IMG/VR virus record: IMGVR_UViG_2526164691_000017
Span: 1 to 21,753 of that record
Strand: one strand, 5' to 3'
Length of the DNA stretch: 21,753 nt
DNA from: a virus
Taxonomy: Duplodnaviria; Heunggongvirae; Uroviricota; Caudoviricetes
In this document: positions 4,372 through 20,873 of the stretch, piece by piece
Numbering within the stretch: position 1 is the first letter of the stretch
How the letters are laid out: every line of letters begins with the position of its first letter
Program-made: the position numbers and the translations under genes
Notes under the pieces: generated by a model
Told to the model about the DNA's origin: nothing
The model's database searches: none
Seen by the model: only the letters and a program-made list of their open reading frames with translations

Positions 4372-4539
4372 ATGCGAACCATAAATGCCTCATCTTCAGC
4401 AATGCAACCGGCATCCGAACAGGACGATATTGTAAATTCACCTAATTACGAGGACATTGCAGTAGTTGAATTGCAGCTCTGTATTAGCCTGACAGTGACA
4501 GAATGCGATATTGACTCTGTCACAGGTGAAATAGTTTGA
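4372..4539 (+). CDS. Hypothetical small protein (55 aa)
   Basis: ATG at 4372 with GAGGGG RBS 6 nt upstream; acidic product; not in the ORF track (below 60 aa). Convergent with ORF 4560..4766. Confidence 0.2.
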   Translation: MRTINASSSAMQPASEQDDIVNSPNYEDIAVVELQLCISLTVTECDIDSVTGEIV

Positions 4540-4559
4540 ATGATTAGCAGTTATGGTGC

Positions 4560-4766
4560 TCAGTCAACCACCAGGGAATAATCCTTCGAATTCTTATCGT
4601 GCTTCACCAACGCTGCCTCAATTGCCCTGAATGCTTCCAGAGACACCTGATGTTCTATACATGCAATTACAACATCCGGGTAACTCATAGAAATGGTGCT
4701 ATTAAGCATATTTTTTACACGAATCAGATCCAACGAGACTTCATCAGCAGATTGTTCTTTATTCAT
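4560..4766 (-). CDS. Hypothetical protein (68 aa)
   Basis: ORF track; AT-rich; sits in the moron island between cos and ydfO. Not recognised. Confidence 0.3.
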
Positions 4767-5066
4767 TTTGTCGCTCCATGCGTTTGCTCGTCATCTAGCG
4801 GTTAAAATATTACTTCAAATCTTACTGCATAAAAGAGGAAAAGTATGAAAGTTTGAGTACATCGACCTTACATACATCTGTCGGTTGCATATCCCTCCTG
4901 GATGCCAGCAAGGCTCAATTTTGTTACGCAATCAACACTATTCATTAAAAACAGGCTTAATATTTGACATAAATCATCAACAAAACACAAAGAGGTCAGA
5001 CCAGATTGAAACAATAAACACGATAATGCTAACTACGCGCCATCGTATCACATGGAAGGTTTACCA

Positions 5067-5477
5067 ATGGCTCAGGCTGCCATTTTTAAAGAAATATTCG
5101 ATCAAGTGCGTAAAGATTTAAACTGTGAATTATTTTATTCTGAGCTAAAACGTCACAATGTCTCACTTTATATTTACTATTTAGCCACAGATAATATTCA
5201 CATTGTGTTAGAAAACGACAACATAGTGTTAGTAAAAGGACTCAAAAAGGTTGTAAATGTTAAATTCTCCAGAAACAAACATCTTATAGAGACCTCCTAT
5301 AATAAGTTGAAATCAAAAGAAATCACATTTCAACAATACAGGGAAAATCTTGCTAAAGCAGGAGTTTTCCGATGGGTTACAAATATCCAGGAACACCAAA
5401 GATATTACTATGCCTTTGATAACTCATTACTATTTACTGAAAGCATCCAGAAAACTACACAGATCTTACCACGCTAA
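5067..5477 (+). CDS. ydfO: YdfO/YbcV-like prophage protein (136 aa from the internal Met)
   Basis: ORF 5052..5477; starting at [11 protein letters not shown] gives 136 aa, the K-12 YdfO length; position next to gnsB matches Qin order; AT-rich. Confidence 0.55.
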
Positions 5478-5628
5478 ACCATAACGTCCGGCTTCTCTCA
5501 CTCCTGAGCCGGACTGCATTGGTTTAATAAAAACCATCAACAATTGTGATTTAGATATTCGGAACCATTCAAATATAACAAAACCCCGTAAAAACGAGGT
5601 TTATGGATAAATTTTATTATTGAATACA

Positions 5629-5802
5629 TCAGATTAAATTAATCTTGACATCATAGCTTTCAAGACCCGTCATTTTTTCCCGTGCGGTAAACTGAATACT
5701 GGTAACTTCTTTCCCGGTCTTTTTCTTAAGTTCAATAATTTTTTTTGTTATATATTCAGAAATATCTGCTTCTGCTTTTGTTTTTAAGTTTTCAATATTC
5801 AT
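5629..5802 (-). CDS. gnsB: GnsB-family protein (57 aa)
   Basis: Manual minus-strand translation gives MNIENLKTKAEADISEYITKKIIELKKKTGKEVTSIQFTAREKMTGLESYDVKINLI, closely matching K-12 GnsB as remembered (FTAREKMTGLESYDVKI); GAGG RBS; not in the ORF track (below 60 aa). Confidence 0.7.
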   Translation of the reverse strand: MNIENLKTKAEADISEYITKKIIELKKKTGKEVTSIQFTAREKMTGLESYDVKINLI

Positions 5803-5973
5803 CATTTCCTCTTTTAGTCTGTTATGACTTTCCAGTTACACAGTAAGTCGATTATATGGTGCAAACGTGTAAAAGATAAGATGAAACATCGCAATAATCA
5901 ACATACGATAGTCTAAATTTTACACAAACAGACAAAGAAAATTTTCCTGAATTATCAATACAATAGCATCAAA

Positions 5974-6129
5974 TCAACTCAAGAGCCTTATTGCTGCTTC
6001 CAGAATTTCTTCTGAAGTAACATGTCGATCCGCGGCTACATAAATGACTTTATGATCTCCGGTCAGAGATGGAAACCCTGCGGCCATTACAGTAAGGTGT
6101 GTTTTTTCGCCATTTGGATATTCACGCAT
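5974..6129 (-). CDS. ynfN: YnfN-like small protein (51 aa from internal Met)
   Basis: ORF 5974..6165; starting at MREYPNGEKTHL gives exactly 51 aa; location between gnsB and cspI matches K-12 Qin order. Confidence 0.5.
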   Translation of the reverse strand: MREYPNGEKTHLTVMAAGFPSLTGDHKVIYVAADRHVTSEEILEAAIRLLS

Positions 6130-6247
6130 GATGGTGTTAACTCCAGTCATCGCTGGCACTACCACTGCTGGTTCAGAGTTAAAAAAACTATGATTTTTTT
6201 CATGATGTTACCGTAGTATGTGAGTATCCATCGAATAGATACCAAGC

Positions 6248-6267
6248 AAAAAAGCTCCCGAAGGAGC
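6248..6267 (-). terminator. Putative rho-independent terminator downstream of cspI
   Basis: GCTCC-CGAA-GGAGC hairpin followed on the minus strand by a T6 tract (A6 at 6248-6253 on plus). Confidence 0.4.
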
Positions 6268-6474
6268 CTTCATTTTCACTTTTTTAAATCCAACGACAGA
6301 CGGCTGGCATTTAAGTATTGTGAAATATTATCAAATGTAATCATCATTGATTTACAAAAGATACATTTTGCCCCGAAAGGATTCATGTCAGAAACATCAA
6401 AAGATGATGTTCTATACTGGGAACCATGACAACACGGGCATCTAAAGTGAATATGGTTTGTAATATTGTCTACC

Positions 6475-6687
6475 TCAAAGCGCCACTACATGAACAGCGG
6501 CAGGACCTTTAGGTCCGTTCTCAATACCAAATTCAACTTCCTGATTCTCAGTTAATGTTTTGAAATCGTTGCTCTGAATTGCTGAGAAATGGACAAACAC
6601 ATCTTTGCTGCCATCTTTCGGCGTGATGAAACCAAAACCTTTTTCAGGGTTAAACCATTTCACTAAACCAGTCATTTTGTTAGACAT
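6475..6687 (-). CDS. cspI: Cold-shock protein, CspA family (70 aa)
   Basis: [38 protein letters not shown] has the RNP1/RNP2 cold-shock-domain motifs; matches K-12 CspI as remembered; ~360-nt AT-rich upstream region typical of csp leaders. Confidence 0.85.
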
Positions 6688-7049
6688 AATTATTACCTTT
6701 TGAAGAAATTAGCCCTTGGGCAGAATGGTCCGAAAAAAAATATCAGAGAGAAAAACCAACAAGGAAATCTCAAGAGGTACAAATAATAAAATTATAACAA
6801 TGACTGCTTCAGATAAATTTGTAACAAACCAGAACACCATTAACGCATGATTAACCACCCATAGCAAGGATTACTTTTGTAAAGAAAAACACAGCAATGA
6901 AAGAATAGCTTTATTTATTAATAAAACGTGTCATTCTGATTAAGACCTTTTATCTTACCCTTAAGATTTCAGGAATTTTGGCTCATGGAAGAGTCCTTTT
7001 TATTTAAATTTTACATTCCGCGATGTAAATGTTCCGATTTAATATTACC

Positions 7050-8073
<1,024 letters not shown>

Positions 8074-8077
<4 letters not shown>

Positions 8078-8385
8078 ATATATTTATGATGAGGACGCTC
8101 GTGCTTATTGGCAGGATTTTCAATCTTAAAGGAGTACTGATGCTGCAGATAAGACTCAACTTTTTCTGACAATTTTTCTGCTACTTCCAGGAAGACTTGC
8201 CGGACGCTCCTTCTGGCTGCTGCCTCATAAAACTCCAGCGCAGCTCCTTCAACACGGTCCATGGCGACATCCAGGTCAAAAATTTCACCGTCAAAGCGTT
8301 CCTTGTCCTGTAAGGCTACAGTTACCGTAACTTTATTCTCAAAATTACGGACTCCTTTCACAACCAGTTCATAGTCTTGAGTCAT
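8074..8385 (-). CDS. ydfR: YdfR-like protein (103 aa) between holin and endolysin
   Basis: Length and position (essQ-ydfR-rrrQ) match K-12 Qin; overlaps the endolysin start by 4 nt. Confidence 0.6.
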
Positions 8386-8389
8386 TGGA

Positions 8390-8605
8390 TTACTCTCCTC
8401 TCGCAGCCTTACGCCTGTCTTCTTTAATCTTGAAATAAAGATTTGTCAGATACGTCAGCAGGCCAAAAACCAGGCTACCCAGCACACCGATTGCAGCCCA
8501 CTGTGACGGAGTTACTTTATCGAGTAACTGTAATGCCCAGAAACCAGCATTACCCGCCGATGTGCCATAGGCAACACCTGTTGTTAACTTATCCATTGAT
8601 TTCAT
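8390..8605 (-). CDS. essQ: Class II holin, S21-type pinholin (71 aa)
   Basis: From the internal Met, [71 protein letters not shown] is 71 aa with two TM segments and a charged tail, matching phage 21 S21 and K-12 EssQ as remembered. Confidence 0.8.
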
Positions 8606-8824
8606 ATCCTCACCCCGATGTACACGGATGGTGCAATATGTTTGAAAAAGATCGGAGTCTACGGGGTAGTTTTGACAGCACACGTTGTTCTCAACGGCGC
8701 TAAAGAAACATACACATTAAAAATGTGAGTAATTATTTTGAAAGAAAGTCATATATAAAATAATAATACGAGAAATGTTTTCATATTTAGTGTACTGTAT
8801 ACGGCCATTATACAGGAAAAGCCT

Positions 8825-8995
8825 ATGTCAGAACGTAAAGACTCAAAATCACGCCGTAATTATCTCGTTAAATGTTCCTGCCCAAACTGCACCCAAGAGT
8901 CAGAACACAGTTTTTCAAGAGTACAAAAAGGTGCCCTTTTGATCTGCCCTCATTGCAACAAAGTATTCCAGACAAATCTTAAAGCTGTAGCCTGA
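8825..8995 (+). CDS. Hypothetical small zinc-ribbon protein (56 aa; CxxC...CxxC)
   Basis: ATG at 8825 with AGGAAAA RBS; product has CPNC and CPHC pairs; followed by a strong hairpin at about 9055-9078. Confidence 0.35.
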   Translation: MSERKDSKSRRNYLVKCSCPNCTQESEHSFSRVQKGALLICPHCNKVFQTNLKAVA

Positions 8996-9054
8996 TTGAT
9001 TTTATTAGTAACAAGTATTTTTTATATTTTAATAATATATTTAAAGCAGATAAT

Positions 9055-9078
9055 AAAAAACCCGCCTGAGCGGGTTTG
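9055..9078. terminator. Rho-independent terminator hairpin (AACCCGC-CTGA-GCGGGTT), possibly bidirectional
   Basis: GC stem with tetraloop; T-rich run on the minus strand (TTTTTTATTAT) and TTTGAG on plus; downstream of cspB (minus) and the small Zn-ribbon ORF (plus). Confidence 0.55.
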
Positions 9079-9358
9079 AGATTGTGGTGCTTTTTGTGGG
9101 AGTCATCCACTTACGCACTTTGTTTTGCGATGCCAGCAGTTAGCTTCTGCTGTGAAACTATTCATGCAGCAAACCTGCACTTCACCACAATGGTTAGCAT
9201 ACTTTTCCTGATTAAGATTTTGCCAAATATGCTAGCCATTGTTTCATGTATTGGACCTCCTTACTTTTTATTAAAGAGATCCAATATTCACTACTCTGTC
9301 CGTATCTCTACTCAGGCATCAGCCTTCTTCGTTATCGTATACAGACGAGCGATGAATT

Positions 9359-9574
9359 TTAATCAGTAATGATGACATTTGCTGCTGCAGGACCTTTAGC
9401 ACCTCTCTCTATAGAGAAGGTAACCTTTTGACCTTCAAATAAGGTTCGATAATTATCATTCTGAATCGCAGAAAAATGCACAAACACATCTTTACTACCA
9501 TCAACAGGAGAAATAAAGCCGAAACCTTTATCAGCGTTAAACCATTTTACTAAACCAGTCATTTTATTTGACAT
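9359..9574 (-). CDS. cspB: Cold-shock protein, CspA family (71 aa)
   Basis: [53 protein letters not shown]; cold-shock-domain motifs; matches K-12 CspB as remembered. Confidence 0.85.
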
Positions 9575-9884
9575 TCTACATTCCTTAACTTGAGCCTTTC
9601 GGCATAAATGGTTTGCATAACAGAAACGACTTCGTACTTAATTGGAGAGACTCAAAGAAGGAATAAGTGAATAACACCTGAAATGAGAACTGCTTTAGTA
9701 AACTACTTCGTATATCGTCTGTTCTTCAAACCGACGCAGTCATTAACTCATAGTTGAACATATGAAGCAATGTTTATTTTAGACATCCAGCCACCTTCAA
9801 TCCTATCAAAAAAGTAGTTTTCTCCAGGAACGTGTGTATGGTGCACCAGGTTATCAGTATTAAGGAGTTTTTCTGTCCCCTAAA

Positions 9885-10081
9885 ATGACAGGAATTGTCA
9901 AAAACTTTGACTACAAAAGCAGCAAAGGTCTTATATTCCCATCCGATGGCGTATCGATGCCCAGCTTCACGTTTCAGCTCTCAATCTTCGAGATGCAGAA
10001 GAAATTACCACAGGATTACGCGTGGAATTTTGCTGGATAAATGGTTCGCGTGGACCTTCAACTGCCAATGTTTATCCCGGG
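9885..10081 (+). pseudogene. cspF: cspF-like cold-shock gene, frame-disrupted near 9950 and lacking its normal stop
   Basis: From ATG 9885 the frame gives [22 protein letters not shown] (CspF/CspH-like N-terminus) then stops after 55 codons; a second frame gives [42 protein letters not shown] (CspF-like C-terminus) and then runs on as ORF 10022..10411. A missing C at GGC(C)GT would explain the shift. Confidence 0.5.
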
Positions 10082-12879: not shown

Positions 12880-13035
12880 TTACTCCTCAGGTTCGTAAGC
12901 TGTGAAGACAGCGACCTCCGTCTGGCCGGTTCGGATTCGTACCTCGCAGAGGTCTTTCCTCGTTACCAGTGCCGTCACTATGACGGTTAAACAGATGACG
13001 ATCAGGGCGATTAACATCGCCTTTTGCTGCTTCAT
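12880..13035 (-). CDS. hokD: Hok-family type I toxin (51 aa)
   Basis: From the internal Met of ORF 12880..13092: MKQQKAMLIALIVICLTVIVTALVTRKDLCEVRIRTGQTEVAVFTAYEPEE, a single-TM Hok/Gef peptide matching K-12 HokD as remembered; AAGGAG RBS upstream. Confidence 0.8.
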   Translation of the reverse strand: MKQQKAMLIALIVICLTVIVTALVTRKDLCEVRIRTGQTEVAVFTAYEPEE

Positions 13036-13758
13036 AGCCTGCTTCTCCTTGCCTTTCGGCACGTAAGAGGCTAACCTACATATGTCTAGCATGAAATTGG
13101 CCTCAGATTAATGTTAAGCGTCTTGCAGGACGCGTAATGTTAACTGGGGCTTTTCTCTATCTGCCGTTGGTGTTCATGCCCGAGGCAGATAGCCTCAAGC
13201 ACCCGCAGCCATTCTACTTAACTACCGTTACCTCGCCAATGTGAAATCAGTCAGAAAGGCGATCCATAAGAACAATAGCAAGACAATAAATCGCCATTAC
13301 AGCCGTAATAGCCAGCGCACATTTGAGAACCAGCACCACAACCTCCTGTATTGGACGTAGACCAGTCCTGATGAATATGAGGCTGTCTCGTCAGTGATTC
13401 AATACAACTATTGGGTATAGTTTCTCTGATTTTTTCTGTGGAAATGGGGCACAACCACTAGTCACCACCAGCACTTCTTTTAATACGCAAAGTCCGACAC
13501 AAGCTAACCTTCTAGTCCGCTTTGAGCGAAAAACAGCCATAATTTAGTGCCACGTATATAATGATAGAGCTATTCAAGCTAGCAATTCACATGTAAAAAT
13601 TCAGAGGGTAGATGCACATAGTTATAAATGTTGGCTCCATCGACAAATTGCGGTCTCAAGTACATTTTAGACTGGCCCCCTGAATCTCCAGACAACCAGT
13701 ATCACTTAAATAAGTGATAGTCTTAATACTAGTTTTTAGACTAGTCATTGGAGAACAG

Positions 13759-14124
13759 ATGATTGATGTCTTAGGGCCGGAGAAACGCAGACGGCGTACC
13801 ACACAGGAAAAGATCGCAATTGTTCAGCAGAGCTTTGAACCGGGGATGACGGTCTCCCTCGTTGCCCGGCAACATGGTGTAGCAGCCAGCCAGTTATTTC
13901 TCTGGCGTAAGCAATACCAGGAAGGAAGTCTTACCGCTGTCGCCGCCGGAGAACAGGTTGTTCCTGCCTCTGAACTTGCTGCCGCCATGAAGCAGATTAA
14001 AGAACTCCAGCGCCTGCTCGGCAAGAAAACGATGGAAAATGAACTCCTCAAAGAAGCCGTTGAATATGGACGGGCAAAAAAGTGGATAGCGCACGCGCCC
14101 TTATTGCCCGGGGATGGGGAGTAA
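13759..14124 (+). CDS. insC: IS2 transposase OrfA (InsC), 121 aa
   Basis: [56 protein letters not shown]: HTH plus leucine-zipper OrfA; A6G slippery heptamer (GGGCAAAAAAGTGG near 14068-14081) for the -1 frameshift into insD. Confidence 0.9.
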
Positions 14125-14987
14125 GCTTAGTCAGCCGTTGTCTCCGGGTGTCGCGTGCGCAGTTGCACGTCATTCTCAGACGAACCGATGACTGGATGGA
14201 TAGCCGCCGCAGTCGTCACACTGATGATACGGATGTGCTTCTCCGTATACACCATGTTATCGGAGAGCTGCCCACGTATGGTTATCGTCGGGTATGGGCG
14301 CTGCTTCGCAGACAGGCAGAACTTGATGGTATGCCTGCGATCAATGCCAAACGTGTTTACCGGATCATGCGCCAGAATGCGCTGTTGCTTGAGCGAAAAC
14401 CTGCTGTACCGCCATCGAAACGGGCACATACAGGCAGAGTGGCCGTGAAAGAAAGCAATCAGCGATGGTGCTCTGACGGGTTCGAGTTCTGCTGTGATAA
14501 CGGAGAGAGACTGCGTGTCACGTTCGCGCTGGACTGCTGTGATCGTGAGGCACTGCACTGGGCGGTGACTACCGGCGGTTTCAACAGTGAAACAGTACAG
14601 GACGTCATGCTGGGAGCGGTGGAACGCCGCTTCGGCAACGATCTTCCGTCGTCTCCAGTGGAGTGGCTGACGGATAATGGTTCATGCTACCGGGCTAATG
14701 AAACACGCCAGTTCGCCCGGATGTTGGGACTTGAACCGAAGAACACGGCGGTGCGGAGTCCGGAGAGTAACGGAATAGCAGAGAGCTTCGTGAAAACGAT
14801 AAAGCGTGACTACATCAGTATCATGCCCAAACCAGACGGGTTAACGGCAGCAAAGAACCTTGCAGAGGCGTTCGAGCATTATAACGAATGGCATCCGCAT
14901 AGTGCGCTGGGTTATCGCTCGCCACGGGAATATCTGCGGCAGCGGGCTTGTAATGGGTTAAGTGATAACAGATGTCTGGAAATATAG
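14082..14987 (+). CDS. insD: IS2 transposase OrfB (InsD), DDE catalytic domain, 301 aa
   Basis: ORF track; overlaps insC in the -1 frame; IS3-family integrase-core protein with the DDE triad (the final Glu in the [10 protein letters not shown] segment). Confidence 0.9.
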
Positions 14988-15045
14988 GGGCAAATCCACA
15001 TTTATTAATGTTGCCCCCGCATTAACAAATCATCAAGGTGACGAC

Positions 15046-16833
15046 ATGGACGATATTAATATCAGCCTCGACGAACTTAACACTATTGATTTATCCCCCT
15101 TAATCCAGAGTAAGCTGCCAGTTACCTGCTTTGATATCACAAAGTATCTTTCTAGCCTAGGTGATGGAAGAGCGGAGATAAGACTGCTAACCCATATTTG
15201 CGGTTTTCACTTTCGTCCCGAAAATCCACAGGTACCATTTGGTCCGTGCTTTCAAAGCAGCCAAGGTAGATCTGCAATTCCGGATGACATTAACGGGTTG
15301 TCGCTGGAGGTACTTTCTCAATTTTGCCCGACGATAGAGCTACCCGAACTTCAAGCTCGTATTGCTGATACACTTTGGGTTCGTAAAATTGGTGGAATCC
15401 GTTTTCCTTTGCTGGCAGTCCGTGCTTATTATGCGTCCAGTATAGCTATTATGACATCGCAAGGGACGTGGGTTAGTGCTTTAGAACGCCTAGAGCGTGC
15501 GCTTAGGCTGTGTTGTTTTTTTCGAAAGCATACTGATTTCAGGGATGAATTTGATCAGCTTTCGGCACATCTACTAGCAGAGTATGAACGTACCAGAGAA
15601 CAAGGCGATTCACCTTATCCGCTGCGACTCCTGCAACTCGATATCGACTGTAAAGTGAGTGAGCCATCTTTTATTGCCCAGGAACTCCTGTTTCTGACAA
15701 AAAACTATCTGGCTCAAAAATTATTTTCATTTGCCGTCGATGCCTGTAAAACCGCAATCCCGATTGCGAATAGGTGCTGTGACAGAGATACACAGTTTGA
15801 ATTCTGGCGGCTTCTTGCCGATACACATCTGGAAGAGTCAAAATTCCAAGATGGCGGTATGATTTCGGCAGCCTGCATGCAGAATGCTATTGAAGCACTG
15901 GCTAATATTCCAGGAACCCGAATAGAACGTCTTGCGCTGTATGAAGAAATGCGTGATTACCAAATCGAATCCCGTCACCAGATGTCTATCCTTCAGTCTC
16001 CCCCTCAAGATATTAGTGAGATTGTCCATCAAGCCAAGAGTCGGGTAGTCGGAAGAGATTTGTTTGATATGGTTTTCAGACTTGCGATGCTGGTCTGTCG
16101 GCCAACCAGCATTGAGAGACTTAAGGCTCAAGCAATAGAACAAAAGGCCAACAGCATAGCTTGGATGTTTGGATCAACACATATTGATCATGAGGGAATG
16201 ACACTTGCTCGCATACCCGCAGGATTGGGGATTGATGATGCAAATGGGGCAGTTATTTGGCCCATAATGATGACGAGAATGCGTATCGACCATGAGTTGG
16301 CAGTAGCTGGGCAAATTATTCCTGCTACAGATGAGATCACAATGAAATATCCAATCTCGGAGGCGTTTTTTCGCGATATGTTCATCAATCATCCCTTCAT
16401 CCCGTTTGGGCATGAAGAGTTTTTCATCAAGGGTATGGTTTGCGGTTTCAATGGAGATTTTATGACGGCATGCCACGTGTTGATTCCCCAGATCGAAAAT
16501 AGTCTGAGATATGTGGCTAAAATTAAAGGTGAGGAACCATCGCAGCTTCACGGGGACGGTTCGCAAGAGCGAAATGGACTCAAGGGATTACTAGATAATC
16601 CACTGATTATTGAAGCTTTCGGCGTAGACATAATTGGCAATCTTCAGGCCTTACTGGTAGATAAAATCTATGGTGATTTACGAAATCAACTAGCTCACGG
16701 ATATGTGCCTGCCGGTTACTACAATCAACCTCCCTGCATTTTTGCATGGTGGCTTGTATTGCACATTCTAATGAACCCTACGGCGAGATACTGGCAAGCC
16801 ACTTATGGCCAAGAGAGTGAGGCTCAGACTTAA
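15046..16833 (+). CDS. Large uncharacterised cargo protein (595 aa) with C-terminal HEPN-like R-x4-H motif; candidate defence/abortive-infection effector
   Basis: ATG at 15046 preceded by AAGGTGA RBS (the ORF-track start at 14962 lies inside IS2 and is an artefact). RNQLAHG encoded at 16681-16701. Plus-strand gene convergent with the minus-strand early operon; GC content appears below the flanking genes by eye. No K-12 Qin counterpart recalled here. Confidence 0.7.
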   Translation: MDDINISLDELNTIDLSPLIQSKLPVTCFDITKYLSSLGDGRAEIRLLTHICGFHFRPENPQVPFGPCFQSSQGRSAIPDDINGLSLEVLSQFCPTIELPELQARIADTLWVRKIGGIRFPLLAVRAYYASSIAIMTSQGTWVSALERLERALRLCCFFRKHTDFRDEFDQLSAHLLAEYERTREQGDSPYPLRLLQLDIDCKVSEPSFIAQELLFLTKNYLAQKLFSFAVDACKTAIPIANRCCDRDTQFEFWRLLADTHLEESKFQDGGMISAACMQNAIEALANIPGTRIERLALYEEMRDYQIESRHQMSILQSPPQDISEIVHQAKSRVVGRDLFDMVFRLAMLVCRPTSIERLKAQAIEQKANSIAWMFGSTHIDHEGMTLARIPAGLGIDDANGAVIWPIMMTRMRIDHELAVAGQIIPATDEITMKYPISEAFFRDMFINHPFIPFGHEEFFIKGMVCGFNGDFMTACHVLIPQIENSLRYVAKIKGEEPSQLHGDGSQERNGLKGLLDNPLIIEAFGVDIIGNLQALLVDKIYGDLRNQLAHGYVPAGYYNQPPCIFAWWLVLHILMNPTARYWQATYGQESEAQT

Positions 16834-17051
16834 AGTGAATAAGTTTACGAAGTTGGCACTTCCGGATGCATGTCCATATGAGTTGAGGCGATTTGGTTAA
16901 TAAGGTTGAGTGCTGCTGAAATTATTCGATGTCCGCTTTTGGCACAAAGCGGACAACCACGCCAGATCTACCCTGTGCCATGAAAAATGAGAATGTCAAT
17001 TCACTCCTGAACTAATGCTTTTTAATCTAGTAACGTCTAAAATACCTAACA

Positions 17052-20820: not shown

Positions 20821-20873
20821 TTTCTGGTGACGTTTGGCGGTATCAGTTTTACTCCGTGACTGCTCTGCCGCCG
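20821..20873 (+). ncRNA. dicF: DicF small RNA (antisense inhibitor of ftsZ translation)
   Basis: TTTCTGGTGACGTTTGGCGGTATCAGTTTTACTCCGTGACTGCTCTGCCGCC followed by GTTTTT matches the 53-nt DicF sequence as remembered; located between ydfBC and dicB as in K-12. Confidence 0.75.

Follow-up and report, generated by a model that had tools for sequence, protein, structure and literature searches.

A prophage-borne DUF7380-TPR-HEPN gene of Escherichia coli as a candidate single-gene anti-phage effector

HEPN domains of the C6orf70/DUF4209 type were classified by Anantharaman et al. (2013; PMC3710099) as a catalytically active family, "fused to TPR", whose bacterial members are thought to be the source of eukaryotic ERMARD. 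The same study reported an association of the family with restriction-modification (R-M) operons, and predicted that the eukaryotic C6orf70/ERMARD lineage acts in RNA degradation, not immunity. Rousset et al. (2022) recorded 193 and 76 occurrences of two DUF4209 families in the P2 hotspot, and the tables of DefensePredictor (Science 2026) predict novel defence genes in three E. coli DUF4209 lineages, one represented by a 595-amino-acid (aa) protein, WP_021514655.1 (log-odds 4.3), and two others (log-odds 7.4 and 8.1). Our literature search for experimental validation of DUF4209, DUF7380 or the PADLOC candidate system PDC-S39 returned only the 2013 classification, strain inventories, the supplementary tables of Rousset et al. 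and the DefensePredictor tables. Here we describe a 595-aa member of this family encoded in a 21,753-nucleotide (nt) viral sequence, IMG/VR record IMGVR_UViG_2526164691_000017, the whole of which we refer to as the window. Public resources (Pfam, PADLOC, DefensePredictor) already flag the family, the HEPN assignment and the status as a defence candidate, and our findings add nothing to what they flag; the 595-aa protein is an already indexed member of a known candidate family rather than a system of a new kind.

The window matches the E. coli DEC9B chromosome (NZ_CP074760.1) at 100%, and the element that carries the gene is a complete-looking, Qin-like lambdoid prophage inserted beside rspB/ynfA. 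An earlier reading made from the letters of the window without database searches (the sequence-only reading) had proposed a single 595-aa gene on the plus strand; the open reading frame (ORF) listing and an identical RefSeq protein, WP_000340969.1 ("DUF4209 domain-containing protein"), agree with it. The gene and its predicted parts are as follows.

15046..16833, plus strand: DUF7380-TPR-HEPN gene, ATG start, 595 aa (ORF listing; RefSeq annotation of the DEC9B and ATCC 25922 loci)
15055..15543, plus strand: DUF7380 region, aa 4-166 (Pfam PF24098, E 3.4e-34, 118.6 bits against a cut-off of 27)
15343..15981, plus strand: TPR-like alpha-solenoid, about aa 100-312, boundaries approximate; proposed sensor/regulatory domain
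16363..16830, plus strand: C-terminal HEPN domain, modelled, aa 440-595
16486..16509, plus strand: P-Q-I-E-N-S-L-R motif, aa 481-488, in the first long HEPN helix (alignment of homologues)
16495-16764, plus strand: DUF4209/EMARD_N match, aa 484-573 (Pfam, E 3e-8)
16681..16701, plus strand: R-N-Q-L-A-H-G, R546-G552, HEPN R-x4-H motif, predicted catalytic (conservation in 61 homologues)

Both Pfam matches lie above their curated gathering cut-offs. The match to DUF4209/EMARD_N (PF13910), a family that the sequence-only reading had named as a guess, scores 33.9 bits against a cut-off of 22.3 and covers profile positions 2-88 of 89. PADLOC assigns the protein to PDC-S39, which corresponds to DUF4209 plus DUF7380, with both hidden Markov models (HMMs) of that candidate system matching residues 43-581 (E 2.1e-102 and 7.3e-102). 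A model built by AlphaFold2 (AF2) with the family alignment is almost all-helical and confident (pLDDT 90.8 over the full length, 91.5 for the C-terminal domain); its secondary structure places a small alpha/beta head and then the first helices in the DUF7380 region, and its C-terminal domain has the four-helix up-and-down HEPN fold around RNQLAH. HEPN assignment of the C-terminus is thus confirmed by the fold of the model, in agreement with the 2013 classification. Sequence searches of the Protein Data Bank (PDB) with the protein and with the family profile returned nothing significant (best E 0.15 and 0.11, to TPR-like or unrelated proteins), an NCBIfam search with the protein matched no model, and a PHROGs search matched families of unknown function only.

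The R-x4-H motif on which the HEPN proposal had been based is uninformative when taken alone. Residue shuffles of the 595-aa protein contain R-x4-H in 64% of cases and R-x4-6-H in 94%; hence, R-x4-H alone is not evidence for a HEPN domain. The protein has four R-x4-6-H matches, and conservation is limited to one of them: in an alignment of 61 homologues, with identity down to 25%, R546, H551 and G552 are invariant, and N547 is found in 53. RNQLAHG indeed occupies residues 546-552, where it had been placed, and its reading as a HEPN signature stands; it is conservation and the modelled structure, not the presence of the motif, that make R546/H551 meaningful. The P-Q-I-E-N-S-L-R motif is similarly constrained (Q482, E484, S486 and R488 invariant, N485 in 60/61), and when used as a query it retrieved 157 relatives in genomes. 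We considered a second internal HEPN motif and rejected it: RLLADTH (255-261), RMRIDH (411-416) and RDMFINH (443-449) are not conserved, and the protein therefore has a single HEPN domain. Conservation per 20-aa block is 0.55-0.68 at the HEPN end and 0.31-0.57 in the N-terminal and TPR parts, which is the pattern that would be expected if a conserved effector were joined to a diversifying sensor.

When 1.84 billion representative proteins, clustered at 50% identity, were searched with a profile, this identified 7670, 5774 and 3016 family clusters at E<=1e-3, 1e-10 and 1e-30, respectively. The best 150 clusters are all approximately 555-675 aa long and match end to end, pointing to a large family with a fixed stand-alone architecture. 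The family is spread over proteobacteria, cyanobacteria, Verrucomicrobia, Bacillota and others, with PAO1 and O157:H7 strains included. In E. coli, the gene is present in 152 of 5426 complete genomes (2.8%), always on the chromosome and with at least 99% identity. All-against-all clustering of neighbours across 80 genomic loci yielded no conserved neighbour gene, giving only a synteny specific to Nostoc (leuC/leuD-like genes). No credible small ORF was found inside the cassette described below, and no MNT nucleotidyltransferase antitoxin is adjacent, either among the cassette ORFs or in the 80 loci. The 595-aa protein is a solo gene without a partner. A Vibrio cholerae homologue, 45% identical, lies in a two-gene islet with a 160-aa ORF (locus L085, 11958-12440) that has no Pfam match and is not kept beside other family members.

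By architecture, the protein belongs with the PDC-S39/C6orf70 HEPN family without structural difference: it has the near-full-length HMM match, both Pfam domains, the fusion to TPR, the R-x4-H motif and the single-gene organisation, and the family itself has candidate status only. Relatives in the P2 hotspot, namely the family of pFR103, the phage vB_EcoM-569R9 gene product and P2-EC46 ORF612, share the PDC-S39 architecture (E 1e-67 to 1e-85), the PQxE..R and RxxLAHG motifs and a location in a prophage hotspot; they differ in being only 22-24% identical, in a TPR middle that cannot be aligned, and in belonging to another phage type and another hotspot. Another protein, pFR83 "HEPN-TPR" from P4 (Rousset et al. 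2022), was set aside as apparently a different protein, judged by eye from a partial sequence, and BxaP was rejected as a family member because it is a DUF4145 and not a DUF4209 protein. HEPN toxins of HEPN-MNT pairs (for example PDB 7ae2, 5yep, 8xdj) and minimal HEPN proteins (AF0298, 2hsb) are approximately 120-140 aa long and are 6-13% identical to the 595-aa protein, which carries a 440-aa N-terminal extension; the toxins are neutralised by an adjacent MNT antitoxin, in contrast to the protein described here, which has neither an MNT nor any other partner. The resemblance is broader with RnlA/LsoA, AbiJ, ApeA, PD-T7-4, DS-11 (CBS-HEPN) and BxaP (DUF4145), each of which joins a HEPN nuclease to a regulatory or sensor domain that differs between systems; carriage on mobile elements and an abortive-infection logic are further points of likeness to these compact HEPN effectors. 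For AbiJ there is a weak link to E. coli DUF4209 proteins (62-73% probability in the HHblits results of DefensePredictor). Membership of RnlA/LsoA (RNase LS) does not fit, as neither RnlA-type N-terminal domains nor an adjacent RnlB/LsoB antitoxin was found. The DUF4209/EMARD_N HEPN domain is shared with human ERMARD (C6orf70); by description only, the eukaryotic protein differs in having a transmembrane anchor and a different domain order.

We then asked how the gene sits in its prophage. The minus-strand DUF977, replication, ydaT and cro-like genes are convergent with it, as the sequence-only reading had stated. The gene also lies between hokD and the replication genes, as stated there, but is not adjacent to hokD: a complete insertion sequence (IS), IS2, lies between hokD/sok and the 595-aa gene. 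The statement in that reading that the K-12 Qin prophage has relBE-ydfV-flxA in the equivalent slot is borne out, the full K-12 content being relE-relB-ydfV-flxA-ydfW-ydfX. Homology of the backbone with sister prophages stops at approximately 13509-13535 and resumes at approximately 16929-16944. In Enterobacter hormaechei, a different prophage has a 94%-identical copy that shares exactly the cassette segment (6116-8219 in the coordinates of locus L002); prophages with other cargo lose their homology to the backbone at L002 6109-6135. Because the breakpoints match the segment shared with Enterobacter, the unit, as delimited by homology, is a self-contained 2.08-kb cassette of 195 bp upstream, the gene and approximately 100 bp downstream. 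The features that bound the slot are listed here.

12880-13092, minus strand: hokD
13030-13204, minus strand: sok antitoxin RNA of hokD (Rfam, above gathering score)
13515..13530, plus strand: left boundary motif GTCCGCTTTGAGCGAA (homology breakpoint; direct repeat with the right boundary)
16931..16954, no strand assigned: right boundary hairpin GTCCGCTTT-TGGCAC-AAAGCGGAC (between convergent genes, where backbone homology resumes)
L100 1569-2918, L097 3938-5713, L098 1851-2873 and L096 4941-5873: the hokD/X/DUF977 slot in other E. coli strains

The left and right boundary motifs have the 9-mer GTCCGCTTT in common, and the pair that marks the cargo slot can be written as GTCCGCTTTGAGCGAA and GTCCGCTTTTGGCAC...GGAC. 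The pair is also present at L096 4738/5942, at L089 8469/11886 and in the IMG/VR loci L109-L214, and it brackets at least eight other cargo sets, mostly of defence type, in several prophage backbones. In 22 of the IMG/VR contigs with the left motif, the right one lies no more than 9 kb away, and the spacing takes discrete values that go with the different cargos. Their cargos are DUF4209; TIR with DUF4209; a 310-aa HEPN protein; a GmrSD_N/PD-T4-2_A-like protein with HEPN_RiboL-PSP; SIR2 with Ham1 and adenosine deaminase; an acetyltransferase with LysR; and DUF2254 with a transporter, spread over at least four upstream backbones. Motifs of the GTCCGCTTT type may mark a dedicated mechanism of cassette exchange rather than ordinary recombination. 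One of the cargos, at L127 2653-5023 (IMGVR_UViG_2531839583_000011), comprises SIR2_2 (ThsA-like), a Ham1-family ITPase and an adenosine deaminase and adjoins a TetR-like regulator; PADLOC matches its individual domains only, and the three genes may form an uncharacterised nucleotide-targeting defence operon.

Sister Qin-like prophages hold different genes between these crisp breakpoints, in agreement with the proposal of a swappable cargo site. In other strains, the same slot contains PD-T7-1 (PADLOC E 7e-157), an AIPR family protein with an AbiU match, QueH with a KwaB-like protein or, in strain E14, a 310-aa protein that RefSeq annotates as HEPN and that has no Pfam or PADLOC match. The hokD/X/DUF977 slot is a defence hotspot. 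The E14 "HEPN domain-containing protein" was rejected as a relative, being unrelated in sequence to the HEPN domain of the 595-aa protein. Elsewhere, a 97%-identical copy in an Enterobacter prophage adjoins a ThsB-like TIR gene, an Enterobacter kobei prophage has a 39%-identical homologue placed between Q and holin, and relatives at 22-24% identity, which also match PDC-S39, are found in the P2 tin/old hotspot, with gpA and gpQ on either side. Location in variable hotspots with known defence genes is thus a feature of the gene and its relatives, though not of all homologues. Together with the HEPN fold, the invariant R546/H551 and the match to PDC-S39, the hotspot context supports the suggestion of an anti-phage or abortive-infection effector, as a candidate.

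The slot also adjoins hokD/sok, and its K-12 counterpart has relBE, both of which are toxin-antitoxin modules. These neighbours would suit an orphan toxin or addiction module, in which a HEPN RNase, checked by an unrecognised antitoxin (an RNA or an intramolecular domain), mainly stabilises the prophage or cassette by post-segregational killing or a selfish-element effect and has no role in anti-phage defence. The closest solved folds are likewise the HEPN toxins of HEPN-MNT pairs, and toxicity could account for copies interrupted by insertion sequences. However, the 80 loci contain no MNT or other conserved partner, the cassette holds no credible small ORF and no Rfam RNA apart from the neighbouring sok, the gene is stable and near-identical in 152 genomes, and the large TPR/DUF7380 part suits a sensor better than a minimal toxin. 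We regard an orphan toxin as decidedly improbable.

The reading we prefer, to which we give a little better than an even chance, is that the protein is a single-polypeptide sensor-effector, auto-inhibited at rest, in which a phage cue would trigger HEPN-mediated RNA cleavage and abortive infection. We infer RNase activity, a phage trigger, oligomerisation and an abortive outcome because these are established for other HEPN effectors; autoinhibition is proposed as well. In an uninfected lysogen, the protein would be expressed from a promoter of its own, in antisense direction to all lytic transcription, with the HEPN site inactive either through the protein being monomeric or through occlusion of the site. 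A phage-derived cue, most likely a protein or peptide, would be bound by the TPR/DUF7380 part, and binding would change the conformation or oligomeric state, such that the R-x4-H motifs of two protomers could form a composite HEPN active site. Cleavage of cellular and/or phage RNA (tRNA, rRNA or mRNA) would then stop translation and abort the infection. The gene itself moves as the 2.08-kb cassette among prophage cargo hotspots.

Several observations weigh against a sensor-effector with a role in defence. The P2-hotspot relative pFR103 ("Putative HEPN", from E. coli S88), cloned and challenged with eight phages by Rousset et al. (2022), stands in their list of "additional tested systems" and not in that of validated ones. 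The DefensePredictor table of transcription units selected for screening contains no DUF4209 accession, PDC-S39 otherwise occurs only in strain inventories, and our literature search found no experimental phenotype, either defence or toxicity, for any family member. The 80 loci did not show the R-M association described in 2013. Many homologues are solo genes among housekeeping genes, outside any recognisable island; a V. cholerae copy lies between tauE/lysR and carB, and another homologue follows metH. Finally, several copies (E. coli genomes H22-H25, H35, H40, H61 and H64; locus L173, 1995-5521) either are interrupted by IS66-family, IS3-family or IS21-like elements or have the annotation "DUF7380 domain-containing protein" only, suggesting truncation. 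Interrupted and truncated copies are compatible with a fitness cost, and equally with neutral decay.

Part of this evidence would fit a non-defence moron, whose HEPN domain, as an RNase or simply by binding RNA, would act in the processing or regulation of host or prophage RNAs, to the advantage of the lysogen or of the phage's own cycle, with no part in the exclusion of other phages. The solo genes amid housekeeping genes and the absence of pFR103, the one tested relative, from the validated defence systems both suit such a role, as does the inclusion in the family of the eukaryotic C6orf70/ERMARD lineage with its predicted role in RNA degradation; the slot, moreover, also holds cargo outside defence (cold-shock-type neighbours, an acetyltransferase with LysR, a transporter). 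Housekeeping RNases are, however, normally less mobile than this gene, whose distribution is patchy and varies between strains (it is present in 2.8% of complete E. coli genomes). It is seen again in three separate hotspots for prophage cargo or defence, sits next to, or in place of, bona fide defence genes, and is flagged by two independent defence predictors. A moron of this kind is unlikely in our judgement.

There is a purely functional analogy with the Avs/STAND NTPases, in which a TPR-like solenoid is also coupled to a nuclease effector. The TPR part of Avs binds conserved phage proteins. In contrast to Avs/STAND proteins, the 595-aa protein has no NTPase domain, and there is no similarity of sequence or profile. 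It is possible, if doubtful, that the protein is a single-chain pattern-recognition immune RNase whose TPR/DUF7380 part directly binds a conserved phage protein and thereby turns on cleavage of a specific RNA by the HEPN domain, and that it represents the bacterial ancestor-type of human ERMARD. If so, identification of its trigger and substrate would assign a biochemical function to the conserved, uncharacterised eukaryotic ERMARD. Confirmation of a defence role would in any case turn a large, widespread candidate family into a validated single-gene immune system with a sensor-nuclease layout, and would make the HEPN domain of human ERMARD accessible through a bacterial model that is easy to work with. 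The value of the gene is that of an easily testable representative of a very large unvalidated family with a human homologue. Its practical value is high: the standard laboratory strain ATCC 25922 offers an uninterrupted identical gene with its native upstream region, and the delimited prophage cargo hotspot can be mined for further systems.

The DEC9B copy differs from that of ATCC 25922 in its upstream region, through the IS2 element, which the sequence-only reading had not noticed.

13515..13667, plus strand: distal part of the 195-bp upstream region of the cassette (homology breakpoints; uninterrupted sequence in ATCC 25922)
13663-13667 and 14999-15003: 5-bp IS2 target duplication CATTT (read from the sequence)
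13668..14998, plus strand: complete IS2 (insC/insD), 1331 bp (ORFs; ends read from the sequence; uninterrupted allele; RefSeq)
14999..15045, plus strand: remaining native leader, 47 nt

Between the end of IS2 and the ATG there are 47 nt. The element is co-oriented with the gene, which it separates from the distal upstream region, in which the native promoter presumably lies. Since the insertion is inside the 195-bp region that travels with the cassette, the promoter has probably been displaced by 1.3 kb, and, with IS2 so close to the ATG, expression in DEC9B may be lost or rewired. The IS2 junction was found in 1 of 5426 complete E. coli genomes, that of DEC9B itself; in ATCC 25922 and many other strains the gene is identical and IS2 is absent. 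For the DEC9B copy only, and compatibly with any of the readings above, these data raise the prospect of a silenced or decaying passenger, cut off from its promoter by IS2. The element with its 5-bp duplication inside the upstream region, the restriction of the junction to DEC9B, and the IS66, IS3 or IS21 insertions and DUF7380-only annotations of other strains are all in keeping with such a fate. On the other hand, DEC9B retains an intact coding sequence that matches the allele of ATCC 25922 at 100% identity, and general IS biology allows read-through or an outward or hybrid promoter of the co-oriented IS2 to drive or raise expression. Scans for promoter and terminator consensus sequences do not help in the choice, as counts were no higher than in shuffles and nothing convincing was found upstream of the gene; the intergenic RNA fold is unremarkable (z = -1.1). 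We consider silencing of this copy a real prospect that falls somewhat short of an even chance. An in-frame GTG at 14962, which would open a 623-aa ORF, is not supported as the start: it falls inside IS2, and the DUF7380 alignment already begins at residue 4 of the protein read from the ATG.

The base composition of the gene had been described, by eye, as lower in GC than that of the neighbouring phage genes. It is 44.9%, whereas the phage genes on either side have 48.6-49.7% and the window as a whole 46.4%, so that the difference is real and the dip modest. A much stronger compositional anomaly is seen in two AT-rich stretches of the window, at approximately 4500-7000 and 8500-10000, where GC content is 31-39%. 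These stretches carry gnsB, ynfN, the small genes ynfR/ynfQ, cspI, cspB and a cspF pseudogene. The remaining RNA features of the window are listed below; the two leaders sit upstream of the prophage cold-shock genes cspI and cspB.

20822-20873, plus strand: DicF small RNA (Rfam, above gathering score)
6448-6833 and 9343-9735, minus strand: two cspA-type thermoregulator leaders (Rfam, above gathering score)

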